Position numbers and translations under genes: made by a program
The notes under the pieces: generated by a model
What the model saw: the letters and a program-made list of their open reading frames with translations, nothing else
Databases searched by the model: none
Told to the model about the DNA's origin: nothing
Shown: piece after piece, positions 16,263 through 35,555 of the stretch
Numbering within the stretch: the stretch's first letter is position 1
Layout: every line of letters begins with the position of its first letter
DNA from: Ignavibacteria bacterium
Lineage (GTDB): Bacteria; Bacteroidota; Ignavibacteria; Kapaibacteriales; UBA2268
DNA: 40,406 nt
Assembly: GCA_012522895.1 (NCBI GenBank)
Contig: JAAYJM010000195.1
Span: forward strand, 1 to 40,406
Direction of reading: 5' to 3'

Positions 16263-16349
16263 TGTTTTTTGGTTTTATTGATGAATTAAGAATATAAATG
16301 TATTTTTTTCATAAATTAATAATATAAATCATTTTTAATCGGAGGTATT

Positions 16350-19300
16350 ATGCATCGATTGTTTCGTTTAAGTTTCTTAGTGATGCTTTTCGGCATATTC
16401 CTGATTTGGGAAGCTGATGCCCAAAGGCCACAGGCTTACATCTCAGGTAAAATCGAGCCGAATGATGTAAGAATCTTACTTAAAGACACTACCTACATAA
16501 TCAATAGAGATTATGTGGTGGCAGGAACATTAATTATTGAACCGGGAACAACAGTGTTGTTCTATCCGAATGGCCGTTTGATTGATTCTGTCGGTGGCAG
16601 AATTATTGCAGACGGCTTTTCAAAGTCAGTTTATAATCAACACCCGGACGGAATCACTCCTTTGCCAGGGCACTCAAGCAACTTAGCAAGGCGTTTTACG
16701 GGCTATTATGACTTAAGGTATTTTGGATACCGCTCTGCTTCTGACCAAACAATCAAATGGACGACAGACAGAGAAAAAACAATCCATAGTGATAAGTATA
16801 ATTTAGTTTATAATTTACTTCTTGACACAGCTCAAAGGAAAATATCAACCCCCAGACCGGGTATTATTCCAGCAGCTAATCAGATTTGGATAAGCTATGA
16901 AGAAGCTATTATGTTCACAGCAGCTAAATTACATACTTTCGACCCAGTTAAAAACTTATATCCTTTAGATTCAGCAAGATTGAGTATTAAAACAGGAAGA
17001 ATTAACTTTATCGGACAGCCCGTGGACAACTTTTCAAGGGAATGGGGACATATTATAATTCTCCCAGGCGCCGGTATTTCTTTCTTTAGAAATTGCACAT
17101 TTGACGGATTTAGAAAAGATACAACAGTAGATAGAACAAACTACTACGGTTATGAAGCTTTTGCTAATCACGGAAACTGGATGGATATGCCTACTTGGCA
17201 AGTCGACAATTTGAACAATAGAATGAGAGTTCTTACAAATGGTAGCGGTGGCGCGATTACAACTTTCTCATCGCGCACTTGGCTTATCGACTGTGAGTTT
17301 AAAAATAATATGGCTCGCCATCGTGGTGGCGCCGTTCAATTTTTACAAGCTCCAAATGGACTCCCAACTGATCCAGCTTTTGCTTTCACTAATTTTTATC
17401 CAGCTATAAAGAATCCAAATATTACCGAAAGAGATGGCGCACCATCTAATGTGAACGCATTTGTTCCGGTGATTGACTATTTAGATGAGCAATTCCCGGA
17501 GCCAGTATTGTCAAGCTTTCCACTTGCAGCAAATCAACTGGATTTTGCAAGACAAGCTTATGATGATGGGCGTATGTCTATTTTCCTCGGTAGATTTAGA
17601 AATATAACATTTACAAATAATAAAGTATTACTTTCCAATATTGGCCAAAAGGCAGTTGGAACTCCTCCAGTCTTAATTGTTACTGATTTAGATAATGAAG
17701 CTGGAATTCAAAAAGACGGACGTAATACTGCAGCTGGCGGCGCTATGTATATTTATGGCTCCAATCCACTTGAAATTGGACTTGGCGTTAATAATAGCAT
17801 ATATATTAAAGCGGCAGATGGCGTTACAGACGAACTTCTTACTTTTGAAGATGATACTTTTGAGGCATTAAATAACAATGCCACATCTTATCAGCCAGTT
17901 TTAGAAAGAGTTCCTACTCAGCAGGGCGCCGTTGGTGGTGCTGTTTATGTTGGTAATCTTAATTTAGATAACCCATATTTGGTTAATGACGCTACTTCTT
18001 TAATAGTTGCTGGCGCATTTAAAAACAACTCAACAGTAACCCCATATATTAATGAGGATGTTGAAGAACTTGATATCGCTGCTAATTTTTCAAAAGGTGG
18101 CGCAATTTATACAAATTCAGATTTTGCCGATGCTCGCTTGCAAGTTCGTGGCGGACCGGCTAGAGTTAGAACAGCTAATGAAACAGAATTCATTAACAAC
18201 AGCTCAGGAGTTGGTGGCGCAATTTATGTTGAAGCTATTTGGGGAAATCAACAATCTCCCGTTCTTGGTGGTCATGATGTGAAAAGCTTAGCTGCTCAAT
18301 TAAACGACTATCCAAGAGATTATGGATTTAATGTTCTGTTCCAAAATAATGCTGCTCAATATTTTGGTGGCGCAATTTATACAGAAAGAAGCCCTGTAAT
18401 CACCGGCGCAGGTGGAATTGATGGATTGTCCTCAATGGGTTATGGTGGAGTTCGCCATATTAGATTCATAGAAAACACAGCTCGATATGCTGGCGGTGCA
18501 ATTGATGTCGATTTGTCGAATAGAGGGCTTTTGCCAGAATTTAGAGCAGTTCAAATTATTCGTGCAGAATTCTCAGAAAACAAAGTAGGCTTTAATTCAG
18601 AAATTTCTGCAGATAACAAAGCGATTATCCGTGGCGGCGGTGCAATTTATTCCGTTGATGCTGACATTAACTTAGTTAAGGGAACTGAGTTTAGAGCAAA
18701 CAAAGTGATGAATGGAAATGGCGCTGCTATTGCTTTAATCCGTCCTATTAGAGAAATAAAAAGATTCTTTTTAACAGATTTAGATAATGTAGTTTTTGAC
18801 CCATTGCTCAATAACATTGCAACTAATTTTGTTTCAAATGATGATGTATTTACATTTAAACCAAGTCCATACCCCGCACAAACAGGTATGTTGACTCGTT
18901 TTCTTGATAATGAAATCGTTGTAGAAAATGAGCTTCTTGAATCTCAAAGCGGCTCAGGCACAACGCAAATCGAAGTTCCAGGAACTATTGTAAGAAATGA
19001 TGACCTTTTTGCAATCACTTTCTTAAATCAAGAAACTGGCTTTGCTGTTGGAGAAAACGGAACTATTGTCAAGATAACTGAAGAAGGAACAAAATGGGAG
19101 TATGTTTCTGCAGCCCCAACTTCTTATTATACAGACATTGCATTTGTTACGAACAACATTGGCTACGCAACTTCTGTAGATGGCTTTTTAGCAAGAACAG
19201 TTGATGGTGGTATGAATTGGGCTCCATGGATTTTCTCGGGCTCGCAACTTAATGCCATTGCTTTCAACGGCTCAAAAGGTGCGGTTATTGGAAATGATGG

Positions 19301-22300
19301 TTTTATTGGTCTAACAAATGATGGCGGAACTAGTTGGGGAACTACCATTCCTGGCTTTGCTGCTCAACCAATTAATTTTACAGATAAAAACTTATATGGT
19401 TTATTCTGGGCAGATGCAGATAACTTATGGATTATCGGCTCCGAGGGAACTATTATTAAAGTAAGCACACTTGGTGGCTGGGAATATGTTACCTCAAATA
19501 CTTTTAACGACTTAAACTCGCTTTATTTTGTTAATGCTAATGTTGGCTATATTGTTGGAGAAGGCGCTATTGTTCTTAAAACAACTAATGGCGGAATTTC
19601 TTGGGAAGGCGATTATAGACCCGAAAACGTAGACTTTAATAAAGTTTCATTCAAATTAAATACTGGTTTTATCATTGGTGAAAACGGTGTTGTTCTTCAA
19701 ACTACAGATGCTGGTGAAACATGGGCTGAGCAAGTTTCCAACACTGATAAGGAATTATACGATCTATTTTTCGTTACACCGCAAATGGGTTATATGGTTG
19801 GTGAAAATGAGTCTGTTGAAGGAACAACTTATAATTCCAGCTTGATGATAACTCGCGATGGTGGCGCAACTTGGAATAAAGTAATCACCAGCGATACTGC
19901 AAGATTAGATGTTGTAAGATACCACCCACATCCAATGGTCAATTTACCAGAAAATGGCATTGGACTTGGTGGAGCAATCTACGTTCTTGACGTTATTAAC
20001 GCAGATAGAGCATTAAGAGAAGACAGCGTTCGCTTAAATAGAGTTAGATTCCAAGATAATAAAGCATATAGTGGCGCTGCAGTTTATTCAGATAACTACA
20101 ACTTAAACTTTATATTAACTCGTTGCTTAGTTACAGGTAACGAAGCAATCGAGCAAAACGATATTGGTATTTTGCAAAACGCAATTACCGGTCCATATAT
20201 TAGAAACCCATTGCCTGGTATTACAGAAAAGAACGTTGCTTCAAGCGATTTAGTTGGCTCAATCTTTTACGCAAACGTAATGGGTCCCTTGCCAGCTAAT
20301 ACATCTTCAATAGCAGCAAACTCAATTTATGATAACAATGCAAGATTCCTCTTCCGCTTGCCAGACGCTCCTAATACAAAAGGTGTTTTGGTTGGAACAA
20401 GTGGTATTGGCTATGGTGGAATCGATACTTTGCGTAGCAACTATTGGGGACATACCGAAGCTAATGTAAACATAGTTATTAACAACGTTCACGGTGGCTG
20501 GGCAAATGCAATTAAGGAAACATTTTTCATTCGCACAGACGATCAAAATCATTTAGGCTATATTTGGTGGAATAACGATAACCCAAGAATGAATTTATTA
20601 GAGCAAGGTCCATTTGAAAGCATTAATAGATTTAATTATCAACCGATTCCACTTCTTAACGTTCAAGGCGACGAAAACGAAGCTGCTGCAAACAGTATCC
20701 CAGAAAAACTTTTGATGTCCGGCTTTGTTTATGATATATACGATAAGGGAACAGACATTAAAACTGCTGACTATTCAAATCGCAGGATGAGCCCAATCGA
20801 AGACTTTGCGGTTGGTATTCCTCCAAAATTTGAATTATATTCTGATGCTTCTCAGCCATCAAATGGTCGCTATGTAAAGAGATATACAAGAGATCCTTTT
20901 GTTGCTGAAGCTTTAGATGAAAATTCTGAGTTGAAATATCCTTTGATTGCAATGTTGCAAGAAGAGTTTTATGCAGATAAAGATGGAACATTTTTCCATC
21001 CAGTTGGCTATCCCTTATATTTAGAAACAAAGATTGATTACGAAGGCTTTATAGACATTTCAAATCATGACCCAAGAGCTTTGAATGAAACTGTATTCTT
21101 CGTGGTTAATGAAAGCACTGGCGATTATATAAGAGTAAATATGAGGCAATTTTCAGAAGACGCAGTTCAAGGTTTAGCAGATGCAAGAAGTTTGTTTAGA
21201 GCAAGAGTAGAATTAGTGCCAGACTCTACAAACCGTTCTTCATCAGTTATTAAGCCTGGCTTAGCAAGACGTATTTCTGAAGGCTTGCCAACTTATGGAA
21301 GCTTATTCCAATTGCTTGATAGTTTAAACAGAAATCCTTACAATGAAGATGCTGCCACACTTCTTGGTAGAAAATACTATGAAAGCACAACTTCATTTGC
21401 AAATAAGACTAACTTATTTAGCAATAGACCAGATATGCCGCAAGCTGACCAAGGCAAGCAAACATTCTTTGCTGGCGAAAGGTATACAGCTTTGCCAGTA
21501 AATGTTGGCGACTCTATTTATATTATATCAAGGTCTTACTTATGGCAACACGGACCAAGTGAAGCTATTGCCAAAGGCTTGCATTTTGTAATTAGTGGTT
21601 CAGTTAATCCTCCCGATTACACTGGCGATATTCCAGCTTTGGGAGAAAGAAAAATTATTGGTATAGTTCCATCAGAATATCCTTGGAAGAGGGATCTTGG
21701 TCTTTCAGATACTATTTGGAATGATGATTTTATTAACAAAGTGCATTTGACTGAAAATCGCGTTTATCCTGTAAGAAAAGGTTCTTATAGCGATCCGAAT
21801 AGCATTTATTATACACTGCATGATGATGAAGCTGCAAGAGGCTTGAACACTGGCGATATGAAAGGACGCGACTCTATTTTAGCGGTAACCGCAGTAGATT
21901 TGAATAATTTTATTGACCCAATGTCCCTGTTGATTCCAACAGAATACACAAACTTATCTTATATGTATAAGTTTGATCGCAATAATGCACTTTTATACTG
22001 GCTCTGGGCTAAGATGATTCCAAGTTCATCTCCAGAAAAGGACGGTGCCGCTGGCTGGATGCAATTTAATGGCAAGCCAATTAACCCATTTGTAGTTCCG
22101 GAAGGCGAATGGCTTACTGTCCGAGTTGACAATTATCCTCCACACTGGAGAACTGTTGATAAGCTAAAGAAATTATCTGACTTAGATGAAGACTATATTA
22201 GCAAATTTATCAATTTATTTAGACCATATTTAAACGCACCTTTATATACAGGTTACTTAGCTCGTTTCTTACAGGCAGATACAATTGATGTCGGTTCAAA

Positions 22301-24515
22301 CTATCATTCACTTGATTTTAAATTCAACATAACTGTTGTTAACGAACCACCTAAATTCTTGCCACATAAGTCACCAAGGGCTTTGAATCCAACTCCAGTA
22401 ACCAGACCTAATTTAGACGTTACAAGACAGCAAATGCAAAATAATAACTTTGTAGTAGATGCAACTACCATTGTAGTTGATACAATTTTCTACCAAGATT
22501 CTTATTATACTTGCGACACTACTTTAGACGGAAAATTGATTGGTAACGTTACTGATAAGTTAAGATTCCAGGCAGACTTTAATACAGACGATGAAATGGA
22601 AGATGCTTATGCAGCGAGACTTGATTGGGAATTCCCCTTTGGTAGATTGAATTACTCTTTAATTGATAGACCTAACTTTATGGGGCCCCAATATCTTTAT
22701 GTTTATGGCTCTGATACTGATCTAGATCCTTTTGCTGTCGATCTTACTACTTATGGCAAGGTTAATATTAGAATTCCAGCTGCAGAGGCAAGACAGCTTC
22801 TAAAACCAGTTAATCAATATAATAGATATTTGGTCAATGATACCGTCTTTACTATTTTAGCTGAAGATGGTCATGGTGGTTTAACAAGTTTAAATGTTAA
22901 ACTGTTCATTAACTACGCTCCTGAAATTATAACCCAAACTCTTCCAGATGCTAAAGAAGATTATGATTATAATCCTGGATTGCTCGATAGCGCAAAAATG
23001 ATTAACGTGTTTGACGCTAACTTTGGGCAAGAGCATAGATATGAACTCGTTTATGAAGATTATCCATTTGACCAATTAGATAGAGACCCATGCTTTGCTG
23101 AAGCTGGAGTTTGGGACTTATCTGGAATGAAAACTACTCCTAAATGGCTCAAAATAAATGAGACAAGCGGTTTACTTTATGGAGTCCCAAGCATTGGGAA
23201 CGCTCCAAAGGATGAGCAAGTTACTGTCGTTGTTTGGGATATGATTGATGGCGAAAGAAAAATACCAGTTGTTAAGACATTTAACCTGTTTGTCGATTCA
23301 ACTAATCATGCGCCTCATTTTGTATCTTCTCCAGCAGTCCAATGTATTGATTATGGAAAACCTTATGAGGATTTCTTAGTTGTAAGCGATAGAGATTTGC
23401 TTAGAGCAAATATCGATGGCAGAACAGCTGAAGAGCTAACAGTAACTGTTACTCAACCAACAAGTGGCTTGAGCGCACAATTTATTGGCGGAGGAAAGAG
23501 CCCACAAGGAGACGAATACGATACAATTAGAGTATGGACAGATAACTTTGATTTGCCTCGCGATTCTGATGGTAAAATCACAATTAAAATTGAAGTAAAA
23601 GACAAAGCAAATAATAGAGTTGAATTAGTATATCGCTTGAAGATGTCAGATCTTACTAATTTTGTTGCAACTATTAAAGTTGAGAACTCAAGACCAGACG
23701 GTAGCCCAGGTGCATTCCAGCTCTTAGAATTTGGAACTGCAAATCCACAAACAGGCGTAACTACTGGTGATGGTTCTGACAACAACCCTGTTGGTATATT
23801 AGACTACAATTTCTGCGAATTTGAATTGCCACCAATACCAAATCAAGATATTTTTGATGTAAGATGGCAAATCCCACAAACTAACGGAACTTTAAGGAAT
23901 ATTTATCCTAAGGGTTCGGCAACTGAAGGCTCTTACATATACAGAGGTATTTTCCAAGCTGGTGGTGAAAAAGGCAATACCGGTATATACTACCCAATTC
24001 ATATTAGCTGGAATAGAACTGAAATTCCTCAAAAAGCTCAAGCAAGTGATCCAACTTGGTGGATTGGGGACGCTATTTCACTCGGCAACTATTTTAGCTA
24101 CAATATGAGCACAGGTGAAGGACGCAAGACATCAGATATTCAATACAGCATAACTGATGACGTTTGCAAGATTTCAATTGCAAGTGATGTTGTTAATGCT
24201 TTTGTAATTTATTACGATTGGACGAGCAGCGTTGATCAGCCAATCGCTGGCTTAGAAACTGCAATTACATCAATTTCACCTAACCCATTCGATGGAAATA
24301 CTAATATTCATTTTGAGATTGGAAAATCCAGCAAAGTTAGAATTGAAGTAGTTGATCAACTTGGAAATGTTGTCGCTTTAATATCAGACGCAGATTACAC
24401 ACCAGGACAATATACAATTAATTGGAACGCAAAAGACCTATCAAGTGGAACGTATACTTGTAGAATGGTTGCTGGCTCAGTTACATCAGCTTACAAAATG
24501 ATAATTGTAAAATAG
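16350..24515 (+). CDS. Giant (2721 aa) T9SS-secreted protein: GGA(I/V)-repeat beta-helix, YCF48/BNR-like beta-propeller, Ig/cadherin-like domains, type-A C-terminal sorting domain
   Basis: GGAGGT SD and signal peptide. About 12 GG/GA-A(I/V/M) repeats, most with nearby FxxN motifs. T-x-D/N-G-G-x-x-W repeats. PEIITQTLPDAKE...WLKINETSGLLYGVP. C-terminus ISPNPF...LSSGTYTCRM...KMIIVK. Confidence 0.85.
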   Translation: MHRLFRLSFLVMLFGIFLIWEADAQRPQAYISGKIEPNDVRILLKDTTYIINRDYVVAGTLIIEPGTTVLFYPNGRLIDSVGGRIIADGFSKSVYNQHPDGITPLPGHSSNLARRFTGYYDLRYFGYRSASDQTIKWTTDREKTIHSDKYNLVYNLLLDTAQRKISTPRPGIIPAANQIWISYEEAIMFTAAKLHTFDPVKNLYPLDSARLSIKTGRINFIGQPVDNFSREWGHIIILPGAGISFFRNCTFDGFRKDTTVDRTNYYGYEAFANHGNWMDMPTWQVDNLNNRMRVLTNGSGGAITTFSSRTWLIDCEFKNNMARHRGGAVQFLQAPNGLPTDPAFAFTNFYPAIKNPNITERDGAPSNVNAFVPVIDYLDEQFPEPVLSSFPLAANQLDFARQAYDDGRMSIFLGRFRNITFTNNKVLLSNIGQKAVGTPPVLIVTDLDNEAGIQKDGRNTAAGGAMYIYGSNPLEIGLGVNNSIYIKAADGVTDELLTFEDDTFEALNNNATSYQPVLERVPTQQGAVGGAVYVGNLNLDNPYLVNDATSLIVAGAFKNNSTVTPYINEDVEELDIAANFSKGGAIYTNSDFADARLQVRGGPARVRTANETEFINNSSGVGGAIYVEAIWGNQQSPVLGGHDVKSLAAQLNDYPRDYGFNVLFQNNAAQYFGGAIYTERSPVITGAGGIDGLSSMGYGGVRHIRFIENTARYAGGAIDVDLSNRGLLPEFRAVQIIRAEFSENKVGFNSEISADNKAIIRGGGAIYSVDADINLVKGTEFRANKVMNGNGAAIALIRPIREIKRFFLTDLDNVVFDPLLNNIATNFVSNDDVFTFKPSPYPAQTGMLTRFLDNEIVVENELLESQSGSGTTQIEVPGTIVRNDDLFAITFLNQETGFAVGENGTIVKITEEGTKWEYVSAAPTSYYTDIAFVTNNIGYATSVDGFLARTVDGGMNWAPWIFSGSQLNAIAFNGSKGAVIGNDGFIGLTNDGGTSWGTTIPGFAAQPINFTDKNLYGLFWADADNLWIIGSEGTIIKVSTLGGWEYVTSNTFNDLNSLYFVNANVGYIVGEGAIVLKTTNGGISWEGDYRPENVDFNKVSFKLNTGFIIGENGVVLQTTDAGETWAEQVSNTDKELYDLFFVTPQMGYMVGENESVEGTTYNSSLMITRDGGATWNKVITSDTARLDVVRYHPHPMVNLPENGIGLGGAIYVLDVINADRALREDSVRLNRVRFQDNKAYSGAAVYSDNYNLNFILTRCLVTGNEAIEQNDIGILQNAITGPYIRNPLPGITEKNVASSDLVGSIFYANVMGPLPANTSSIAANSIYDNNARFLFRLPDAPNTKGVLVGTSGIGYGGIDTLRSNYWGHTEANVNIVINNVHGGWANAIKETFFIRTDDQNHLGYIWWNNDNPRMNLLEQGPFESINRFNYQPIPLLNVQGDENEAAANSIPEKLLMSGFVYDIYDKGTDIKTADYSNRRMSPIEDFAVGIPPKFELYSDASQPSNGRYVKRYTRDPFVAEALDENSELKYPLIAMLQEEFYADKDGTFFHPVGYPLYLETKIDYEGFIDISNHDPRALNETVFFVVNESTGDYIRVNMRQFSEDAVQGLADARSLFRARVELVPDSTNRSSSVIKPGLARRISEGLPTYGSLFQLLDSLNRNPYNEDAATLLGRKYYESTTSFANKTNLFSNRPDMPQADQGKQTFFAGERYTALPVNVGDSIYIISRSYLWQHGPSEAIAKGLHFVISGSVNPPDYTGDIPALGERKIIGIVPSEYPWKRDLGLSDTIWNDDFINKVHLTENRVYPVRKGSYSDPNSIYYTLHDDEAARGLNTGDMKGRDSILAVTAVDLNNFIDPMSLLIPTEYTNLSYMYKFDRNNALLYWLWAKMIPSSSPEKDGAAGWMQFNGKPINPFVVPEGEWLTVRVDNYPPHWRTVDKLKKLSDLDEDYISKFINLFRPYLNAPLYTGYLARFLQADTIDVGSNYHSLDFKFNITVVNEPPKFLPHKSPRALNPTPVTRPNLDVTRQQMQNNNFVVDATTIVVDTIFYQDSYYTCDTTLDGKLIGNVTDKLRFQADFNTDDEMEDAYAARLDWEFPFGRLNYSLIDRPNFMGPQYLYVYGSDTDLDPFAVDLTTYGKVNIRIPAAEARQLLKPVNQYNRYLVNDTVFTILAEDGHGGLTSLNVKLFINYAPEIITQTLPDAKEDYDYNPGLLDSAKMINVFDANFGQEHRYELVYEDYPFDQLDRDPCFAEAGVWDLSGMKTTPKWLKINETSGLLYGVPSIGNAPKDEQVTVVVWDMIDGERKIPVVKTFNLFVDSTNHAPHFVSSPAVQCIDYGKPYEDFLVVSDRDLLRANIDGRTAEELTVTVTQPTSGLSAQFIGGGKSPQGDEYDTIRVWTDNFDLPRDSDGKITIKIEVKDKANNRVELVYRLKMSDLTNFVATIKVENSRPDGSPGAFQLLEFGTANPQTGVTTGDGSDNNPVGILDYNFCEFELPPIPNQDIFDVRWQIPQTNGTLRNIYPKGSATEGSYIYRGIFQAGGEKGNTGIYYPIHISWNRTEIPQKAQASDPTWWIGDAISLGNYFSYNMSTGEGRKTSDIQYSITDDVCKISIASDVVNAFVIYYDWTSSVDQPIAGLETAITSISPNPFDGNTNIHFEIGKSSKVRIEVVDQLGNVVALISDADYTPGQYTINWNAKDLSSGTYTCRMVAGSVTSAYKMIIVK

Positions 24516-24523
24516 TCATAAAA

Positions 24524-24551
24524 ATGCAGGTATCTTTAAGGATACCTGCAT
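24524..24551 (+). other. Perfect 11-bp intergenic stem-loop (processing/stabiliser element or weak terminator)
   Basis: ATGCAGGTATC-TTTAAG-GATACCTGCAT, with no clean poly-T tail. Confidence 0.65.
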
Positions 24552-24592
24552 AATTAATTATGAAAATAATTTATAAATATATGGAGAAAAAT

Positions 24593-26413
24593 ATGAAGAA
24601 ATACCTATCATTTATGCTCGGGGCTTTGTTTATGCTTGGAATTTTAATTTCATTGCCTGCAACAGCCCAAGTTTATAGTGAATTTGAGCCACCTGTCAAT
24701 GTCAAAAAAGGTAGTTACACCGACCTTGTTAACGATGTGTACATTCCGCACTCCTCGTTTACTCGTGTGTCTTCTGCAATTAACGATACGATAAATGGAT
24801 ATGCTCAGATTCCAATCGGCTTTGAATTTGAATTCAATGGGAATTCATACTCGAATCTTTGGGTTTGCGTTAATGGTTTTGTTACTTTCAACAATCCACT
24901 TTCGCTTGCTCAAGATCTGCCAGATGGACTTTTTACTTTCGATGACGCTCGTTTTCAAAATAACGTGATTGCTCCTTATTGGGGAAATCACTGCTATAGA
25001 GCATCTTCAAGAATTTCTTATAAACAAGAAGAAAACAATACTATTTTGACAGTTCAATGGCAAAATTTGAACGTCAATAGCCCTATTGATCCAACAAGAG
25101 TTGCATCTTTTCAAGTAAAACTTTACAAATCGACCGATGCAAGCTCAAAGCAAGGAAATATAGAATTTAGCTACAGCTCAGTTGGAATGAACGTCGGAAC
25201 TGGCGCCGCTGTTGGAATTAAAGGCGGAAACTTTAACGACTTTTTAAATGCTTTGCAGTATTACAATCCAAGTCAAGCAGCCATTGCAACAACTAAAACA
25301 TTGATTTTCCCACCTACAGGCGCAACAGATAGTATTTTCTTGTTTAGACCTACCATTAGATACAGAGATACATCTAATTGGGGTGATGGTGATGTCGATA
25401 TGTCAAAGAACTTTGCTCACGCTGGAATGCCACAGAATCGTTATGTAACAATTAATGACGCTTACATAATTTTAAATTCAATTGCTACAAGAACACCTTT
25501 AGACAGTGTTCACGGACGTCAAGCATTCCACGGAGACGTAAATCATAATGGCCGTTATTATTATGATTTAGCTCAAAACAAAAAAGTGAAAATTCCTTGG
25601 AGAGACCTGTATTACGATCAAAATATTAACGTTCCACCTTATGTGAATGTTCCATCAAAAAATAATATATTTTTCGAGGTAACCGAATATGACGCCGCAT
25701 TAATACTGCACTATCTAAGCGCAAGATTGCCAAAATTACCTTGGCTAATTGATACAATCGTCCAGTTCGGAAAAAACATTCCACAAGATTTAGTTGCAAA
25801 TAATCTTTCATTAGGAGAAATCACAAAAGTTGGAGATAACAGATACACATTCCCACTTTTCTTAAATGGTTTTTATAATGGAACTATTGCTTCTAAATTA
25901 GAGTTAAACGCTAATATAATAGAGGTAGAATCAAATATTAGCTCTGAGAACTTTTTGATTGATTATTCAAATAATCTTCTTGTATTTGCTGGTTCTGGCG
26001 AATTTGATAAATCATCGCCCATGGCATATATTACAATTTCAAGCTCAGAAAAAGATTTGAATATTAGCGATCTCACATTTAATGATAATGAACTTGGAAA
26101 CCAAAGCTATCGCTTGCCTTTGGAACAAAGCTCAAGCAATGCTTTGCTTTTGCAAAACAGTCCAAATCCATTTGCAAATAGCACAAGTATTATTGTTAAT
26201 ATTGCTGAAGATGCTAATTACACACTTTCAATCTATGACCTTTCTGGCAATAGAATTAAAGTATTAGCAAATGAATTTTTAAGTGCTGGGCAATACTCAT
26301 ATCATTTTGATGGAGTTGATTCAAATGGAAATCAATTAAGCAACGGTATGTATATTTATAAACTTACCAGTGCTAATACTTCTGTTTCTATGAAAATGAT
26401 GCTTAATAGATAA
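24593..26413 (+). CDS. T9SS-secreted protein: NIDO-like domain + dockerin-like module + cohesin-like segment + CTD
   Basis: ATG at 24593 has GGAG upstream and starts a signal peptide (track start 24560). IPIGFEFEFNG...NGFVTF...IAPYW...FQVKLY; GDVD...VTINDAYIIL and GDVNHNG...VTEYDAALILHYL; QNSPNPF...LSNGMYIYKL. Confidence 0.8.
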   Translation: MKKYLSFMLGALFMLGILISLPATAQVYSEFEPPVNVKKGSYTDLVNDVYIPHSSFTRVSSAINDTINGYAQIPIGFEFEFNGNSYSNLWVCVNGFVTFNNPLSLAQDLPDGLFTFDDARFQNNVIAPYWGNHCYRASSRISYKQEENNTILTVQWQNLNVNSPIDPTRVASFQVKLYKSTDASSKQGNIEFSYSSVGMNVGTGAAVGIKGGNFNDFLNALQYYNPSQAAIATTKTLIFPPTGATDSIFLFRPTIRYRDTSNWGDGDVDMSKNFAHAGMPQNRYVTINDAYIILNSIATRTPLDSVHGRQAFHGDVNHNGRYYYDLAQNKKVKIPWRDLYYDQNINVPPYVNVPSKNNIFFEVTEYDAALILHYLSARLPKLPWLIDTIVQFGKNIPQDLVANNLSLGEITKVGDNRYTFPLFLNGFYNGTIASKLELNANIIEVESNISSENFLIDYSNNLLVFAGSGEFDKSSPMAYITISSSEKDLNISDLTFNDNELGNQSYRLPLEQSSSNALLLQNSPNPFANSTSIIVNIAEDANYTLSIYDLSGNRIKVLANEFLSAGQYSYHFDGVDSNGNQLSNGMYIYKLTSANTSVSMKMMLNR

Positions 26414-26419
26414 ATCGAA

Positions 26420-27622
26420 ATGTTTTATCGTGTTTTTAATATAATAATTATTGTGTGGTTGCTTTTTCTAAGTAGCCACACAATAATATTAACAAAAGAA
26501 GCGATGACGGTGCAGCTGAAAAGCAATAATCTTGTTGATGTCTGCGGAAACAAAAAAAATTCAGTTATCGTTTATATTGACATTGGAAATATTTTAAAAA
26601 GCGATTCTTTAGCTGGGTATAATTTTGAATTGCTGTATAATGATGAAAAGCTAAAGTTTAATACAGCGCTGGCAACAGGCTCTTTGACAGAAGGAATAAG
26701 TGCAAAGGATTTCAATTTTGCCGATCCTGGAAAAATATTCGGCTATGCCCTTAAAACAAACGGGTTGATAGAGGGTAATAAGCCGCTAATAGCTTTTCTT
26801 GGTGATTATAAAGGCGATTGCCCCGATAGCGCTTTTGTTAATATTTCGTTCATTGAATTTACAGAATATTTTAAAAAGAAAGCTGATACATTAAAAAATT
26901 GCTTTGTCGAAGCACTTGTTTTTGAAAAAGATGAAAGATTTCTTTCTTCTCAATTTGAGCTGGATTCTATAATAATTCCTTTTGAGGAAAACACTGTTTC
27001 TTCAAAAGTTATGATTTATAGCTATGATGACGCAAGATTGGATACAGTTGATTTTCAAATTAATATATCGGACATAGAAAGGTTTGAAGTTCAAAGCATC
27101 AGCTCTAATACGGATAACATAGAAATTTTAGATTTTAATTCTGAAACAGGGATTTTAAGGACAGTTGTAGATGCTTCTATAAAAGAGGACGATTGGTTCA
27201 TTATTGAGTTGAACGAGAAGTTGAAGGATGAAAATTCCGTTCAATTGAATATTGCACCAATCAAGATAAACGATTGCTCATGCATTAGTTTTCTTAGAGG
27301 AAGCAAACAAATTTTAAAAAGTGAAATTAAAGATACAACTTCAACTGAGGATACAACGGCAAATAGCGTTTATATCAAGCACTTTAAAGAGATTGAAAGT
27401 TTTTATAACAAAGCCTTAGAAGAATTTGTCATTTTAGATAAGAATATGGAGCTTGAAAGTGTATCGCTTATGACATTAGAAGGTAAAATATTGCAAAAGA
27501 AAGATTTACTTAATAGACAAAATAGATATAGTATTGATGTCTCAAACTATGCAAATGGTTTGTTCCTTGTTCAGCTAAAAAACAGAAATGTGATAAAGAA
27601 TATATTATTAATAAAATATTAA
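26420..27622 (+). CDS. Exported protein with cohesin-like N-terminal domain and degenerate T9SS-like C-terminus
   Basis: Signal/TM segment, LAGYNFELLYNDEKLKF...GSLT...PLIAF, and C-terminal LEGKIL...IDVSNYANGLFLVQL. Confidence 0.65.
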   Translation: MFYRVFNIIIIVWLLFLSSHTIILTKEAMTVQLKSNNLVDVCGNKKNSVIVYIDIGNILKSDSLAGYNFELLYNDEKLKFNTALATGSLTEGISAKDFNFADPGKIFGYALKTNGLIEGNKPLIAFLGDYKGDCPDSAFVNISFIEFTEYFKKKADTLKNCFVEALVFEKDERFLSSQFELDSIIIPFEENTVSSKVMIYSYDDARLDTVDFQINISDIERFEVQSISSNTDNIEILDFNSETGILRTVVDASIKEDDWFIIELNEKLKDENSVQLNIAPIKINDCSCISFLRGSKQILKSEIKDTTSTEDTTANSVYIKHFKEIESFYNKALEEFVILDKNMELESVSLMTLEGKILQKKDLLNRQNRYSIDVSNYANGLFLVQLKNRNVIKNILLIKY

Positions 27623-27650
27623 ATTATAATTGTTTTATATGGAGGTTCTT

Positions 27651-30600
27651 ATGAAGTTCAATAATTTACATCAAAGAAGCATCGGCTTGATTTTCGCCCT
27701 TTTATTAGTGGGATTCATTTCGATGCTTACTGAGAATGCATTTAGCCAGAGTCGTCCAAGCATTCCATTGCTAAGCTTAACAGGCGCAGCAGATGGCTGG
27801 AATGATGTCTGGTATCCCGATGGGAGGGTTTGGATTCCACCTTCAAAAGGAAACGAAGTTCGTGAATTCCTTTTGCCGGTTTTTGTAAAAAACCAATGGA
27901 AATCATATCCTCAAACCGCTGATCAATATAAGGCGGATCCAATTCACTCTTTCAAATTTTCTATGCTTTACGATAGCTCTGCTATCAAACCAGTAGATAT
28001 TCAAACTTTCCACCCGGTCAACGACCCCTTGGATCCAAGATTTAGATATGCTCCAGATCCGCTGGCAAAAGATTTTATTGTAGATTGGGAAGTATTTCAC
28101 AACCATAGCTACAGAGAGTTTGTTAACCCTTCTACTCCTTTACAAGATAAGTTAAAAGGGCGCGAAATTGTAATTACAGGTATGTCTTCTAATGCATTAC
28201 CAAATTCTGATGATTACGAGGTGCTTTTATATGTTCGTTTCCAGGTTATTGCGAAAGAAGGTTTGGTTGGAACAGCACGCAAGACTTTGATTTACATTAA
28301 TGCAGATGAAATAATGTATAACGACTTAAACGTTGCGAAATATGCTCCGTTCTTAAATCTTCGTCCCTACAATCCAAACGTAGAATTCGATTTTCCAGAT
28401 CCTACTCCATTTGACCACGTTACTGGATTAGGTGGATTTTCTGGCTTAGCAGGTATAAAAAATAGACCACCCGACCCAACAAATCCACCACCGAACTCAC
28501 AGTGGAACGTTGAGCCGACTTTACCGGGTGTTATTTATATTAACATTACCGATAACCTGCCAAAAATTAATGTTTCTTTGGAAAGAGCTATTGGAACACC
28601 TTCTCCCTTCTCATTATTGCAAGTTGTTCCGGGCGAGCTTTGGCACATGACCGACCCAATCACCGATGATGAGGGGAATATTGAAGCTCCAAGCTATTCA
28701 GGTGATAGAAAAATTAAATTAGCAAACAGCACAACTCGCTCAAGAATTATAGATTTAGAAATTGAATCTGACCAACCCTGGTTGCTTTTCAAAATGGACG
28801 GCATCGTTCCGCCAAGCACTATTTACAATAATTGGTCAACAAAAGGAACTATTTTTAGAATTGATAATAGTATTTTGGGAACAGACCGCGACCCGAATGG
28901 CAGCACTACAAATCTTGATCCAGAAATTTTCCTTAGCATTCGTTGCGATAATACTCAGCTTGCAGCCTTAGAGCAAAAAGCTGGAATTTATGTAGGACAT
29001 ATTACTTTTAGATCTACAACAGCCTCTATTTCACCCGCACGCTTGAGAGTAACATTTATTAACTTTGCTAACCCAGAAGAACCAGAATTGGATCAAGTTT
29101 GGGGAGAGCATCGCGGAATAAAAATTGATGTAAAGAACTCAAGAGGCGCTCATACACACAGAACACAACTTATTTTTGGAACTGGTAAAAGAGCCACAAA
29201 CGGCGTTGATACCCTTTATGGCGAACACGCTCATATAACTCCACCTTCCGGATTTTACGCAAGATGGTTCCCTACAGACGAAACCGTGTTGCAAGATGTT
29301 CCATATGGATTTGGAGACTTTGCTCCTAATGACGAAGAACGCTATTATTTCCCACGCTCACGTGACATTAGAAGCTCCTATGACACCGTTACTTCTATTA
29401 AATATCTTTGCAAGTATTCAGCTGGTAGTTCCGATTATTATCCGGTAATATTAGAATGGAATACAGAAGATTTTCCACCAAATGCACAGCTTTATTTGCG
29501 AGATGCTTTGAACGGTATTAAATTTAACGTTAATATGAGAGAGGCTACAAATATTAGCGGAACAAGGTATTCATATACTTTGAATGACCCGATGGATACT
29601 ACTTTCGTAATTGAGTATACATTGCCAAAAGTTGTTCAATATGTTGATGCAAACAATCAGCCTATTATTAAAAAGGGTTGGAATTTGCTTTCCTTACCTG
29701 TTAAACCTTTGGATTTAAGATATAACAAAGTATATACGCAAGCGGTAAATATTCCTTATTACTTCTCTCAAAATCAATATCAGCAAGCTGAAGAGTTGAA
29801 AGCTGGTGTGGGTTACTTCATCAAGTATAGCGACACCGTGGACACTCGTTTTGCTGGTGCTCATATTATGAATATTTCCCTTGAGCAAGACAATGCAGTT
29901 CGCGTTTATCCTGGTTGGAATACTATTGGAACTTTATCTGTGCCAGTTTCTATTGACCAGATTAGATTTGATGTTATTCCAAACTCAACTTTAAGAGAGC
30001 CACAGACAAGATATACCAAAAAATTTGGTGTTTGGGCTTATAACACAGACAGGGGCTACGAAGAAGTTTCCGGTTTAACTCCAGGTCTTGGCTATTGGAT
30101 TAAAGTTGGTCGCGATGACGAATACCCGGGCCACGGCTATTTGAAAATTGAAAGAGGAACCTCACGTATTTTTGCTAACGATGCACCAAACGAGAGACAA
30201 TCAGTTTTAAGCGATGCCGTTAAATTCAATATCAACGCTCAAAATGCTTCTAATAATTTATATTGGACCTCAAATAATTCAATAGATTTGAATAGCTTTG
30301 AGATGCCACCAGCACCTCCATCTGAATTGTTTGACGTCAGATTTAGCAGCAATAGAAATCTTGAAAATTCAAACGCTACTATTTTATTGCAGGCAGCCGA
30401 TTATCCACTCTCAATTTCTGTTGATAATCCAACAAGGAACTTTAAGCTTTATGACGCTGTTACAAATGAATTCTTTGGTGAAATTAATAATAGCACAAAC
30501 AGTGTAACTATTGCTCAAAGCAAAGCTAATGCAATTAAAGTAGAAGTAGTTCCAAGCTCAACAGAATTTGGTTTGAGCTGCTATCCTAATCCAGTAGCAA

Positions 30601-30821
30601 GCAATTCTACTTTAAGCTTTGTTATCACAGAGAATACTCAGGTTAGCTTAAAGCTTTACGATGCACTTGGAAATGAAGTTTCTGATTTGCTTAATGAATA
30701 CAAAGCCGCTGGCGAGTATAGCATTAATTTGAATGCAAGCACACTCGCAAATGGCAAATATATTTGCAAATTAATTGCTGGACAAAATCAAGCAGTCCAA
30801 ATGATTACTGTTGTTAAATAA
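27651..30821 (+). CDS. Large T9SS-secreted protein with cohesin-like, BACON-like and GWN-repeat regions
   Basis: GGAGGT at 27641 supports ATG 27651 (track start 27630). Signal peptide; LPVFV...SFKFSMLYDSSAI...LLYVRFQV; SDQPWL...GIYVGHITF; KGWNLLSLP/PGWNTIG/PGLGYWIK; CYPNP...LANGKYICKL. Confidence 0.8.
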   Translation: MKFNNLHQRSIGLIFALLLVGFISMLTENAFSQSRPSIPLLSLTGAADGWNDVWYPDGRVWIPPSKGNEVREFLLPVFVKNQWKSYPQTADQYKADPIHSFKFSMLYDSSAIKPVDIQTFHPVNDPLDPRFRYAPDPLAKDFIVDWEVFHNHSYREFVNPSTPLQDKLKGREIVITGMSSNALPNSDDYEVLLYVRFQVIAKEGLVGTARKTLIYINADEIMYNDLNVAKYAPFLNLRPYNPNVEFDFPDPTPFDHVTGLGGFSGLAGIKNRPPDPTNPPPNSQWNVEPTLPGVIYINITDNLPKINVSLERAIGTPSPFSLLQVVPGELWHMTDPITDDEGNIEAPSYSGDRKIKLANSTTRSRIIDLEIESDQPWLLFKMDGIVPPSTIYNNWSTKGTIFRIDNSILGTDRDPNGSTTNLDPEIFLSIRCDNTQLAALEQKAGIYVGHITFRSTTASISPARLRVTFINFANPEEPELDQVWGEHRGIKIDVKNSRGAHTHRTQLIFGTGKRATNGVDTLYGEHAHITPPSGFYARWFPTDETVLQDVPYGFGDFAPNDEERYYFPRSRDIRSSYDTVTSIKYLCKYSAGSSDYYPVILEWNTEDFPPNAQLYLRDALNGIKFNVNMREATNISGTRYSYTLNDPMDTTFVIEYTLPKVVQYVDANNQPIIKKGWNLLSLPVKPLDLRYNKVYTQAVNIPYYFSQNQYQQAEELKAGVGYFIKYSDTVDTRFAGAHIMNISLEQDNAVRVYPGWNTIGTLSVPVSIDQIRFDVIPNSTLREPQTRYTKKFGVWAYNTDRGYEEVSGLTPGLGYWIKVGRDDEYPGHGYLKIERGTSRIFANDAPNERQSVLSDAVKFNINAQNASNNLYWTSNNSIDLNSFEMPPAPPSELFDVRFSSNRNLENSNATILLQAADYPLSISVDNPTRNFKLYDAVTNEFFGEINNSTNSVTIAQSKANAIKVEVVPSSTEFGLSCYPNPVASNSTLSFVITENTQVSLKLYDALGNEVSDLLNEYKAAGEYSINLNASTLANGKYICKLIAGQNQAVQMITVVK

Positions 30822-32340: not shown

Positions 32341-33162
32341 ATGACAAGAGCATCTTTTTTATTAAAATTTATAGCGATACTGCTTCTAACTTCGAGTTCG
32401 CTTGGGCTGGCGCAAATTAGAATTGATTTTAGCGATGCAGCTTTTCCAAGGGCTAAGAAAGCAAACATTTTTGTTGAGGCGGAAGGGAATTTTGATGCAG
32501 TAAACGAAATAAAAATAGTGCTGAAATATAATTCTTATGTTATTGATATTCTTAAAATTACTGGAAGTGAAAAGCATATTATCGGCTGCTCCGAGCCGGA
32601 TTTAATTAGAAAATTTGATAAAATTGATTCTGCAACAATAGAATTTTCTTGCAATGAAATAAACGCAAAAGCTGGGAAAAGACTTTTTGATATAGAAATC
32701 GAAGGGCTTGCCTCGCCAGATTCCTTGACTTACATTTTTATAGAAAGTATTTATTTTGATGGAAAAAAGCAAGTTCTTGGTTTTCAAAAGAATAGTAAAA
32801 TATTAGTGCAAGGCAGCTCGATTTTCCAGCAAATTGAAGGTATGGGCTTAGCTTACCCAAATCCTTTTTTTGACAAAATATACATACCTTTTGCCCTTTC
32901 TAAAGAATCGAATGTTGATTTTTATATTTATTCTGCAAGTGGAAGCCTTATTTTCGATAAATCTGCTATTGGCAAAGAAATAATTATTAGAAGCGAAAGC
33001 GGAAATGTTTCGGGCAACATAGATTTAAACAAAGCTCTTGAAAAGGGAAGATATATAATTGAGTTTGCTCCAAGGAGCTGGAGTTTTTCAACCGCCCGAT
33101 ATTACTTTTTATTAAAAACGGATAGAGACATATATAGTTCTATACTACTTTATGTAAAATGA
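32341..33162 (+). CDS. Exported protein with cohesin-like domain and T9SS/FlgD-like C-terminus
   Basis: ATG at 32341 (track start TTG 32317). Signal peptide; IKIVLKYNSYVIDI...LFDIEIEGLA...IESIYFDG; AYPNPF...FYIYSASGSLI. Confidence 0.6.
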   Translation: MTRASFLLKFIAILLLTSSSLGLAQIRIDFSDAAFPRAKKANIFVEAEGNFDAVNEIKIVLKYNSYVIDILKITGSEKHIIGCSEPDLIRKFDKIDSATIEFSCNEINAKAGKRLFDIEIEGLASPDSLTYIFIESIYFDGKKQVLGFQKNSKILVQGSSIFQQIEGMGLAYPNPFFDKIYIPFALSKESNVDFYIYSASGSLIFDKSAIGKEIIIRSESGNVSGNIDLNKALEKGRYIIEFAPRSWSFSTARYYFLLKTDRDIYSSILLYVK

Positions 33163-35555
33163 TGAAAAGCAAAGCAAAACATATAAATAAGCCGCTTTTT
33201 AGTAAAACTAACAAACAGTTTGCATGGATTATTCTTATCCTTGTTTTTTGCTTTTCAAGTTTGCTTTCTCAAAAATCTTATGCTTCAAATGATACGAAAA
33301 ACTCGGTGGGTAGAGAATTTTGGATTTGCTTTCAAAAGAATTTTAAAGAATCGAAGCAAAGTTCGTCCCGAGACAGCTTGCAGCTTGAACTTTTTATTTC
33401 TGGCGATAAAGACGCAAGAGTCATCATAGAAATAAAGGGAATTGGCTATAAAAATGTGGTGGATATTAAAAAGGACGAGGTTCTAAACATCCCACTTCCT
33501 AAAGAAGCGCAAGTCCTTAGTAGCGATAAAATTGAGCAACTTGCTGTATATATAAAGTCCGATAACCCAATAACAGTTTATGGCTTAAATAGACGTTTTC
33601 AGACCACAGATTCTTTTCTTTGTTTTCCAATGGAGGTGCTTGGAAAAGAATATCGCGCAATGGCTTATTACGTTTCAGATGGTCTAATGTCTCAATTTGC
33701 TATTGTGGCAACCGAGGACAATACCGATGTTAATATTCTGCCTTCTGTTCACACAAGCAACCATTTAGCGGAACAGCTTTATACGGTTAAGCTAAATAAA
33801 GGCGAGGTTTATCAAGTTGTTGCAAAGAACGACAATACTAATAAATGCGATTTAACTGGCTCAATAATCAAGGCAAATAAGAAAATTGCTGTTTTTAGCG
33901 GGCATCAATGTGCTTATGTTCCGCAAAAAATTCTTGCCTGCAATCATTTAATTGAGCAGATGCCTCCTGTTCCCTCTTGGGGAAAGCACTTTTACATTGG
34001 CAAACTGCAAGGTCGCTCTTTTTATACGTATAGAGTTTTAGCTAACGAGACGGATACTCGAATTTTTGAAGATGATAAACTTGTTGCAACGCTAAAAAAT
34101 GGTGAATTTTACGAAAATAATTCTGATCAAGACATTCAAGTTACAGCAGATAAACCCGTTTTAGTTGCCCAATACTCGCAAGGCTTTAAAAACTCTGATT
34201 CTATTGGCGACCCAATGATGATTATGGTCAGCCCTACACAGCAATTTTTGAAGCATTATCGCTTTGCTACTCCAGTCAACGGGCAATGGCGCCACTATAT
34301 TAATGTTGTTTCACCCACAAACTCTGTTAACACAATTTTGCTGAACGGCAAGCCAGTTGATACCACAAGATTTGAGCTGCTTGGGAAATCGCGCTATTCT
34401 ATTGCCTGCATTGAAGTTCCTTTTGGGACTCATATTATTCAAGGCGCAATGCCTTTTGGTATGTATTCTTATGGCTTTGGTTTTGGACGCGATTCTTATG
34501 ATGCTTATGGAACTATGGCCGGACAATCTTTCGTAGATTATCAGCCAGCTGAAGACGTGCTTGCTCCGATTGGGGAATGCGAAAAAACCGATTCATATAC
34601 CGAGCTTACTTTTTGGGACGATAGAGATGACGACACAGGCATTTTATCAGTAAAAGTGCTTGAAAATGAATATATGATCGCAAGCATTCCAGAGATTAGC
34701 GCCGGAGCTCCAAGAGCTTCTTTCAAGGTTACGCCGCAGTTTAAAGACGCTTCCGGAAGAATTGTTTTTCAGGTTTTGGACATTGCTTTAAATAAATCAG
34801 TTTTCACGCTTTGCTATTTATACGATTTGCCTTTGAATAGATTTATTTTCAAGCTTAGCGAGGGAAATGTTGAAAATTGCTCTTCTGATGGCGGCTGGTA
34901 TGCAGGTGGATTTTTAAAGTTATCTGCAAATATGCACTCTGCTTCATTTTCGTCAAGTGGCAATTTAATTTCAAATGGCAATTTTTCTAATAGTGCTGGC
35001 GTTGGAGGTTTTGCTGGATTATATTTAGGGCGAAGAGTTGGAGGTCCTTACATTCTATCTGCTCGCTTATCACTTGAAAATTATGGAGGAACGATAGAAA
35101 GTCCCGACAGCATCAGCTCGAAAGTTCGCACCGAAACTGGGGAGCTAAAAACTCTCCAAGAAGCAAGAACAGTTACTCTTGACGGCTTGTTTTTAAATCT
35201 CAACTTTGCTTGCGAATACTATTTAAACCCAAGTATTTATCTTCTGGGGGGGCTTAATCTTGGCTTTAGCTTATCCAGTGCGATAAGTGCGGAGCAGACG
35301 ATTCTTTCACCAAGCGATTTTGCATACCAAGGTGATGTTCGCTCTTTTCCATTGAACCTAAAAAATTTAAACTCGATGAACAAACTTAGACTTGGCGCTT
35401 TTGCGGGTCTTGGCTTTACCGTTCCTATTCATCGCAGGTTCAATCTTTTCACCGAAGTCTACTATAATCATTCATTATCAAATATAATTGACGATGGCAC
35501 TTGGAAAATTCACAATCTAAGCTTCCAGCTTGGCGCAAGATTTAGAGTTAGATAA
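33159..35555 (+). CDS. IgGFc-binding-like N-terminal domain fused to a C-terminal outer-membrane beta-barrel
   Basis: GREFWICF, SDNPITVYG, LGKEY, FAIVATEDNT.V, DLTGSII.ANK.IAVFSGHQC, NHLIEQMPP...WGK, GDP.M. Amphipathic strands at the end, finishing FQLGARFRVR. Confidence 0.75.
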   Translation: MMKSKAKHINKPLFSKTNKQFAWIILILVFCFSSLLSQKSYASNDTKNSVGREFWICFQKNFKESKQSSSRDSLQLELFISGDKDARVIIEIKGIGYKNVVDIKKDEVLNIPLPKEAQVLSSDKIEQLAVYIKSDNPITVYGLNRRFQTTDSFLCFPMEVLGKEYRAMAYYVSDGLMSQFAIVATEDNTDVNILPSVHTSNHLAEQLYTVKLNKGEVYQVVAKNDNTNKCDLTGSIIKANKKIAVFSGHQCAYVPQKILACNHLIEQMPPVPSWGKHFYIGKLQGRSFYTYRVLANETDTRIFEDDKLVATLKNGEFYENNSDQDIQVTADKPVLVAQYSQGFKNSDSIGDPMMIMVSPTQQFLKHYRFATPVNGQWRHYINVVSPTNSVNTILLNGKPVDTTRFELLGKSRYSIACIEVPFGTHIIQGAMPFGMYSYGFGFGRDSYDAYGTMAGQSFVDYQPAEDVLAPIGECEKTDSYTELTFWDDRDDDTGILSVKVLENEYMIASIPEISAGAPRASFKVTPQFKDASGRIVFQVLDIALNKSVFTLCYLYDLPLNRFIFKLSEGNVENCSSDGGWYAGGFLKLSANMHSASFSSSGNLISNGNFSNSAGVGGFAGLYLGRRVGGPYILSARLSLENYGGTIESPDSISSKVRTETGELKTLQEARTVTLDGLFLNLNFACEYYLNPSIYLLGGLNLGFSLSSAISAEQTILSPSDFAYQGDVRSFPLNLKNLNSMNKLRLGAFAGLGFTVPIHRRFNLFTEVYYNHSLSNIIDDGTWKIHNLSFQLGARFRVR

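Follow-up and report, generated by a model that had tools for sequence, protein, structure and literature searches.

A dockerin-like module with both calcium loops split in a conserved surface-protein gene cluster of a Kapaibacteria-like lineage

Bacteria commonly build their surface assemblies from cohesin-dockerin pairs, which act as a standard plug and socket and have found wide use in protein engineering. In a canonical dockerin the calcium-binding loop is an unbroken run of 12 residues, of which positions 1, 3, 5, 9 and 12 hold the ligands (PMC5934362). The same paper reports two interrupted loops from Ruminococcus flavefaciens: the ScaA dockerin has a 12-residue insert of unknown function in its second calcium loop, and the CttA dockerin has a 13-residue insert in its C-terminal calcium loop together with two more that buttress a neighbouring module (the latter also in PMC4266597). 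For Cloacimonadota, a non-cellulosomal cohesin-dockerin system carried on type IX-secreted proteins has been inferred (PMC8542988). Here we describe a dockerin-like module in which both loops are split. It lies on the forward strand at positions 25379-25744 of the window, by which we mean the whole stretch of DNA analysed, 40,406 nucleotides from an Ignavibacteria bacterium (GenBank assembly GCA_012522895.1, contig JAAYJM010000195.1, positions 1 to 40,406), and it belongs to a 617-residue surface protein encoded in a cluster of five genes. We read it as a divergent dockerin with split loops that would dock on a cohesin-like domain of the 400-residue protein encoded downstream, and we give this reading a probability of about 0.62.

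The module shares with type I dockerins (PF00404) two tandem repeats, the same ligand positions and a three-helix fold: the Clostridium thermocellum structures 2ccl_B, 4dh2_D and 3ul4_B match it with VIA-align at Z 6.6-7.1 over 62-65 residues, which is the whole chain, with a root-mean-square deviation (rmsd) of 2.1-2.6 A. It differs in that both of its loops are broken between positions 6/7 and 8, that Pfam does not match it, and that it occupies an internal position in a type IX-secreted protein from a bacterium of the Bacteroidota group, whereas type I dockerins stand at the end of clostridial enzymes. The ScaA dockerin (5n5p; Z 6.1, 82 of 87 residues, rmsd 3.6 A) likewise has its second calcium loop split, but by a single insert of 12 residues, against two inserts here with 36-83 residues in loop 2; it belongs to a Firmicute cellulosomal scaffoldin and, according to PMC5934362, has lost some ligands and coordinates its ion tetrahedrally, whereas the module retains all ligand residues. 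The type III X-module-dockerin of CttA (4iu2/4iu3) is a weaker structural match (4iu2_B, Z 3.6). Its published description has five helices and an X-module partner; the module here has three helices, no X-module was detected beside it, and the inserts show no evident sequence likeness. The Cloacimonadota system resembles ours in having cohesin and dockerin proteins with C-terminal sorting domains and an inferred surface complex, but in PMC8542988 its modules are seen by standard scans and sit on enzymes and a scaffoldin, whereas Pfam finds no enzyme domain in the cluster described here. Canonical dockerins also occur in the module's own lineage, in types of about 47 and 75 residues. They too are found on type IX-sorted proteins, often beside cohesin-like domains, but their 12-residue loops are intact, they pass the Pfam cut-off (31-33 bits), and the extra residues of the 75-residue type lie between the repeats, not in the loops.

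Loop inserts in dockerins are therefore already known, in one loop and of 12-13 residues, from the published work on ScaA and CttA (PMC5934362). The novelty implied in an earlier note on this DNA, made from its letters without database searches, does not extend to loop inserts as such but does hold for inserts in both loops. Also new are the size of insert 2 and its hairpin, the full retention of ligands, the lineage, and the proposed partnership, within a conserved cluster, with a cohesin-like domain that has diverged just as far. We found no paper on the 617-residue family or the cluster in the literature searched.

Motif layout and conservation

The module comprises the 122 residues 274-395 and was delimited by sequence motifs, conservation, fold and profile matches. 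Repeat 1 (residues 275-310) starts G-D276-G-D278-V-D280, in which D276, D278 and D280 form the first half of calcium loop 1 (positions 1, 3 and 5; 25385-25399). It then runs through the 15 residues M281-Y295 of insert 1 (25400-25444), where a canonical loop has 2, and resumes as V296-T-I-N-D300-A-Y. This second half, with V296, T297 and D300 at positions 8, 9 and 12, leads into helix 1 (298-310; together 25445-25489). A linker with the short helix 2 (321-325, assigned by DSSP on the full-length model; 25490-25534) connects it to repeat 2 (residues 325-394). The latter starts G-D326-V-N328-H-N330-G331-R332 (D326-R332, first half of calcium loop 2, 25535-25555), is interrupted by the 41 residues Y333-E373 of insert 2 (25556-25678), where a canonical loop has none, and resumes as V374-T-E-Y-D378-A-A, with V374, T375 and D378 at positions 8, 9 and 12, followed by helix 3 (376-386) and the terminus L393-P394-W395 (25679-25744). 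Translation of the open reading frame thus confirms the loop starts and helix entries that the earlier note had placed, as well as its claim that both repeats are interrupted between the loop start and the V-T-x-x-D helix entry, by 15 and 41 residues; its end coordinate of 25745 is one too high, the 122 codons ending at 25744.

Eighteen of these positions are invariant in 53 full-length homologs: W274, G275, D276, G277, D278, S282, V296, D300, H324, D326, V327, H329, G331, R332, D378, A379, L393 and P394. L314 and D315 are also invariant. In a 32-row alignment of the domain, the ligand columns of loop 1 are D276 (32/32), D278 (32/32), D280 (30/32, with N in the other two), T297 (30/32) and D300 (32/32). 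Those of loop 2 are D326 (32/32), N328 (31/32), N330 (30/32), T or N at 375 (31/32) and D378 (32/32), and both G331 and R332 are found in every row. Ligand-type residues thus stand at loop positions 1, 3, 5 and 12, with a polar residue at 9, subject to an uncertain register in loop 1. Judged from the sequence, the motif pattern is well beyond chance. In each repeat the chain would leave the loop after position 6 or 7 and re-enter it at position 8, apparently keeping all the usual ligand positions (1, 3, 5, 9 and 12), and the ligand residues would form two metal sites.

A contiguous 12-residue EF-hand-type loop is absent from both repeats in all 56 homologs compared, each of which carries both inserts. 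Insert 1 spans 15-20 residues between D280 and V296 and is partly conserved: in addition to the invariant S282, residues H287, Q292 and R294 are kept in at least 90% of the 53 full-length homologs. Insert 2 spans 36-83 residues between R332 and V374; two strands, R-Y-Y-Y and I-P-W-R-D, are conserved in it on either side of a stretch of variable length. The earlier note had proposed a check of insert conservation and had let its reading depend on the Asp and Ala residues at the helix entries being conserved; the inserts are universal among these homologs, and D300, D378 and A379 are invariant.

Fold and profile relationships

The full-length AlphaFold2 model has a mean predicted local distance difference test score (pLDDT) of 85.9, with most blocks of the module at 82-95; the module domain modelled alone has a pLDDT of 72. 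The models contain two long helices (298-310 and 376-386) and a short one (321-325), so that the two tandem loop-then-helix segments of a dockerin are present in structure as well as in sequence, and the full-length model places a beta-hairpin (332-336/341-345) within insert 2, where the pLDDT blocks are at 64-84. The earlier note had staked its dockerin reading on an antiparallel helix pair; the AlphaFold2 models have the two long helices, and they superpose on solved dockerins.

Foldseek searches of the domain model against the PDB returned 127 chains in a list headed by dockerins (E 0.18-5; for 4uyq_B the template modelling (TM) score normalised by target was 0.68, with an rmsd of 3.0 A). 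When these chains were realigned with VIA-align, 14 reached Z≥2, and the 11 entries among the matches listed, one row for each entry, are all dockerins at Z 5.2-7.7; the remaining 113 chains all stayed below Z 2. Superposition on whole solved dockerins aligned 62-72 residues of chains 64-79 residues long, with rmsd 1.9-3.3 A and Z 6.5-7.7; this whole-domain match was obtained on a predicted model with a pLDDT of 72 (85.9 at full length). A VIA search of all 48,161 representative chains, independent of the Foldseek list, gave the same answer, with 19-29% identity over the aligned residues of matches that cover whole dockerins: ranks 1-13 are all dockerins (Z 7.2-3.4, 51-92 aligned residues, rmsd 2.1-4.9 A), for example 4dh2_D (65 of 70 residues, rmsd 2.1 A, 23% identity) and 2ccl_B (62 of 62 residues, rmsd 2.5 A), and the first unrelated chain appears at Z 2.7. 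The gap in Z below rank 13 is 0.7 units, and that between the top dockerin and the top non-dockerin is 4.5. We consider it very likely that the module has the dockerin fold by descent.

Profile comparisons provide a bridge to canonical dockerins once the inserts are removed, as the earlier note had proposed. With the insert columns deleted, hhalign matches the module's second repeat to the first repeat of the 75-residue dockerins found in the lineage, at a score of 34.3 (probability 85%, E 6e-6, 26 columns), whereas 60 random deletions of equal size gave a mean of 16.8 (standard deviation 0.8) and a maximum of 20.4. Against the 47-residue dockerins the trimmed profile scored 21.1, with a control maximum of 17.2. 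The gain is due to removal of insert 2 alone.

A HMMER scan of 1.84 billion representative sequences retrieved 98 proteins at E≤1e-3; in most, the module lies around residue 300 of a chain of 600-900 residues. Among the three weakest matches, two (P0206, E 1.2e-4; P0207, E 1.8e-4) are proteins with 8-9 Pfam dockerins, which match Dockerin_1 at 7.8e-59 and 2.7e-59, respectively; the third, a FERM-domain protein, was taken as spurious. A few of the proteins have a different architecture, for example P0188, of 1772 residues, in which a choice-of-anchor I domain precedes the module, inserts included, at residues 1424-1581. In its own genome the module is single-copy.

Predicted docking and alternative readings

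The gene directly downstream encodes a 400-residue protein whose residues 25-180 (26492-26959) are probably cohesin-like, judging from modelled structure together with Pfam matches in relatives and hhalign. In an Atlas structure search this region gave TM-scores by query of 0.68-0.76, and four of ten rows name the aligned part as PF00963 Cohesin above the naming bar. The window's own copy has no Pfam cohesin match, and a PDB profile search with the 400-residue family returned sorting-domain matches only; a named cohesin (2xdh_A, E 0.67) was dismissed as support, being aligned to the sorting-domain region. For the 1063-residue family encoded next in the cluster, hhalign against cohesins gave a probability of 5.5%, too low to be of use. 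The TPR family of the cluster served as a negative control in the comparison with cohesins (E 0.57).

When the module and this N-terminal domain were modelled as a complex with calcium included, the three runs scored 0.80, 0.76 and 0.78 (median 0.78), and three controls scored 0.00. Of 80 solved complexes 58 reach the pass mark of this test, as do 2 of 110 mismatched pairs, counts that hold only roughly here, where we used our own alignments and had calcium, itself not scored, present. At least 98% of the contacts are common to the runs, and the pLDDT of the partner is at least 84. In the usual type I mode, one helix contacts the cohesin along its length, together with the end of the other helix. 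The predicted contact of the module follows this mode: its confident contacts are D280, N293 and R294, residues 297-299, 301-303, 305 and 309 of helix 1, and residues 383, 384 and 386-389 at the end of helix 3, and conserved residues on the helix 1 / helix 3 surface form the predicted interface. The suggestion in the earlier note that the inserts could add a specificity surface is partly supported, by N293 and R294 of insert 1 in the predicted interface; for insert 2 no residue is named among the confident contacts, which by the rules of the tool does not count as evidence of no contact. Covariation over 54 paired sequences, expressed as mutual information with average product correction, was higher for the interface block than for all 2000 of 2000 entropy-matched random blocks. 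Docking of the module on its 400-residue neighbour is somewhat favoured.

Several results weigh against a docking dockerin and are gathered here. Pfam Dockerin_1 (gathering score 22.9 bits) has no match at E≤1 on the protein, nor at E≤10 on the module and three pieces of it, as the earlier note had thought possible for standard hidden Markov models, and NCBIfam has no match in the module. With the intact domain alignment, hhalign against the two dockerin alignments from related genomes found local matches of 8-14 columns at a probability of about 2%, and a PDB profile search found a single Fab chain (E 1.4), taken as chance. The match obtained after trimming spans one repeat (26 columns), and a two-repeat trimmed alignment, while collinear, scored 17, no better than controls. 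In Foldseek none of the 127 chains reached E≤0.001, the best being 5m2s_B at 0.18, and a Z of about 7 is in the middling range by the aligner's own scale; since it is middling, the support for the fold rests on the appearance of a single fold and on the Z gaps. The register of loop 1 is ambiguous. The earlier note had read the loop from D278; we prefer D276/D278/D280 as positions 1/3/5, which puts M where position 6 usually has G, and because S282 is invariant too, both registers stay possible. On the partner's side, the Atlas model of the whole 400-residue protein has a mean pLDDT of only 0.66, PF00963 is matched by 4 of 40 homologs, weakly (best E 8.2e-4, below the curated cut-off), and hhalign of the family against cohesins of related genomes gives a probability of just 39.5%. 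The complex may have passed because it is similar to cohesin-dockerin complexes already solved. Among 30 pairing shuffles at least one matched or exceeded the observed covariation (maximum 0.0087 vs 0.0083), and relatedness inflates such signals, for which reason we take the covariation as weak support. Finally, in one related locus (L076) the homologs of the 617-residue protein and of its 1063-residue neighbour (1060 residues there) are adjacent, with no gene for the 400-residue protein between them; this is the sole clear exception among untruncated loci.

Two further Pfam scans likewise missed the module. Dockerin_1 is not among the 25 matches listed of 39 Pfam families found in the 53 family members, and a six-frame scan of the genome with PF00404 at E≤10 identified 7 places, with canonical dockerins on other contigs and none on the contig of the window. 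Because the Pfam model and the contiguous-loop test both fail, we set the module as a dockerin variant: it is a dockerin in kind and departs from plain dockerin membership.

The module could also be a true dockerin-fold domain with another partner. Candidates are residues 410-520 of its own protein, within or between chains, one of four canonical cohesins encoded in one frame on another contig of the genome (C25), or another product of the cluster. The first candidate, a beta-sandwich domain (about residues 410-520, 25787-26119) that is possibly cohesin-like, deserves attention, as the region 400-530 gives cohesin-like leads: Atlas feature scores of 0.86-0.89 to clusters in which 25-79% of members carry Cohesin, a TM-score of 0.67 to one Cohesin cluster, which is below the naming bar, and a weak hhalign probability of 22.7% against cohesins. 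On account of these leads the 617-residue protein may carry both plug and socket. With the full model, Foldseek ranks first 2w1n (E 8.8e-9), a double module of cohesin and FN3; we rejected Foldseek and VIA searches with the 617-residue model as a guide to residues 410-520, however, since their lists are filled by the two C-terminal sandwich domains and hold nothing specific. VIA sees residues 411-520 as a generic beta-sandwich, and the 400-residue N-terminal domain has the strongest cohesin evidence among the candidates, with its gene directly downstream in 76 of 80 loci and missing from one. The pair formed with that domain, the sole pair run, passed the complex test with all controls at 0.00, but close relatives of a true partner can pass this test too. 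We regard a different partner as unlikely.

Another reading makes the module a calcium-stabilised structural spacer, with dockerin-like helix packing by descent or convergence, which no longer docks and whose inserts pack on flanking domains. Loops of the type Dx[DN]xDG recur across many unrelated folds, as PMC3123361 sets out, and the intact module is not recognised as a dockerin by any of the sequence methods used. The module is modelled more confidently in the whole protein than alone, which fits intramolecular packing; insert 2 might pack against a neighbouring domain, by analogy with the CttA inserts, which buttress the neighbouring module (PMC5934362, PMC4266597). A spacer would, however, have to be reconciled with 13 top structural matches among 48,161 chains that are all dockerins and cover the whole dockerin, with multi-dockerin proteins as the first matches outside the family in the exhaustive scan, with a conserved helix 1 / helix 3 interface surface and with a cohesin-like domain encoded next door, and we find it quite improbable. 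Short motifs rich in D and N are common, and the Foldseek E-values exceed 0.1, so one might even suspect a chance pattern in an unrelated domain with no shared function; this is hardly credible given the eighteen invariant positions in 53 homologs, the presence of the module in 183 species genomes and structural matches that are solely dockerins.

Under the preferred reading, a divergent dockerin with split loops docking on the downstream protein, residues 274-395 would form two EF-hand-like loops, each followed by a helix, in the three-helix dockerin arrangement. Loop 1 would make an excursion of 13-18 residues and loop 2 one of 36-83 residues, the latter with a beta-hairpin, and two calcium ions would order the loops. 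As expected from what is known of type IX substrates, the 617-residue protein would leave the cell by type IX secretion, and its C-terminal sorting domain would anchor it to the outer surface. In that position the module would dock on the cohesin-like sheet of the 400-residue protein through the full length of helix 1, two insert 1 residues and the last part of helix 3, and so link products of the conserved five-gene cluster. A wider proposal is that the cluster encodes a surface assembly specific to the Kapaibacteria-like order, and that a new cohesin-dockerin type with functional loop inserts joins its parts. In it, insert 1 would extend the recognition surface, and the hairpin of insert 2 would be a second binding site or a built-in buttress, similar in role to the X-module of ruminococcal type III dockerins. 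We offer this joint proposal tentatively, as rather less than an even bet; if it is true, a dockerin calcium loop can host a whole subdomain with its ligands retained.

Host protein, gene cluster and lineage

The 617-residue type IX-secreted surface protein is encoded on the forward strand at 24560-26413 in the list of open reading frames. We found 295 homologs at E≤1e-3 among 8000 scored candidates, and those listed have 85-100% query coverage and 36-98% identity. The listed start is likely 11 codons too early, and the true start is probably M12, at 24593, because M12 is kept in at least 90% of 53 homologs, the closest homologs are 606-610 residues long, and the Atlas record begins at residue 12. 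Residues M12-A36 (24593-24667) are a probable signal peptide, read by eye from a hydrophobic stretch and a P-A-T-A end before Q37. An N-terminal beta-rich, NIDO-like domain follows (about residues 44-262, 24689-25345), as indicated by strands in the full-length model and Pfam matches in relatives: PF06119 NIDO is matched by 15 of 53 family members (best E 5.4e-6), and the window's own copy has no NIDO match. After the module and the beta-sandwich, residues 526-617 (26135-26410) form a type IX secretion C-terminal sorting domain, the sole match in the Pfam scan of the protein (Por_Secre_tail, PF18962, 1.1e-6, 29.2 bits, cut-off 27; FlgD_ig, 5.3e-10). NCBIfam matches the same region with TIGR04183 (4.4e-10, 39.4 bits, cut-off 23), and it superposes on the C-terminal domain of PorU at Z 12.2 and rmsd 2.7 A over 91 residues. 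With TIGR04183 and PF18962 both matched, the protein classes as a type IX secretion substrate with a type A C-terminal domain.

The gene is the third of five same-strand genes (15516-30821, forward strand) that are found in conserved order in 62 of 80 related loci. The first encodes a 248-residue TPR protein (15516-16262; several Pfam TPR families, homolog in 67 of 80 loci). The second encodes a type IX-sorted giant of 2721 residues with Chlam_PMP repeats and a BNR/Ycf48-like propeller, assigned by Pfam (16350-24515; 76 of 80). The fourth encodes the 400-residue protein (26420-27622), which combines the cohesin-like N-terminal domain with a type IX sorting domain (Pfam 1.6e-5), and the fifth a type IX-sorted protein of 1063 residues (27630-30821; Por_Secre_tail 3.6e-9, homolog in 71 of 80). 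Apart from L076, the loci that lack a homolog of the 400-residue protein directly downstream comprise two truncated contigs and one with a 194-residue open reading frame in its place. The cluster may encode a lineage-specific surface structure. Further along the window, at 33159-35555, lies a gene for a 798-residue protein in which Pfam matches IgGFc_binding (E 3.7e-75) and which ends in an outer-membrane beta-barrel domain; the two short proteins that precede it have no Pfam match apart from one sorting domain.

The genome measures 2.66 Mb in 275 contigs and is 97% complete. Among sampled genomes of the phylum the module was found in 23 of 401, all 23 within the class of the window; of the 22 genomes sampled from its order, 20 have both module and cluster. 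Most records of close homologs carry the label Kapaibacterium, Kapabacteria or Ignavibacteria, although some labels (Hyphomicrobiales is one) seem unreliable. Canonical cohesin-dockerin parts are common in the lineage and are used by the genome and its relatives: of 41 genomes, 28 contain PF00404 and 33 contain PF00963. The C25 contig of the same genome (loci L003 and L008-L011) has a single 2308-residue frame with four near-identical tandem Pfam cohesins (33-38 bits), and upstream of it a 330-residue open reading frame with a weak, degenerate dockerin-like stretch (21.6 bits), a scaffoldin-like arrangement. The dockerin type of about 47 residues is that of contig C61. The type of about 75 residues belongs to a type IX-sorted family of 460-515 residues on contig C136 (L002) and in relatives (L016-L042), with two intact loops and a conserved linker of about 40 residues between them.

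The family indicates that a dockerin can tolerate an interruption in each of its calcium loops, of 36-83 residues in one case, with the ligand residues kept. Because the standard Pfam model does not see such split-loop modules, cohesin-dockerin surveys outside the Firmicutes likely undercount them. For the organism and its relatives, the finding is a first testable handle on a conserved and otherwise unannotated five-gene cluster, and it offers one specific predicted contact, that of the module in the 617-residue protein with the N-terminal domain of its 400-residue neighbour.

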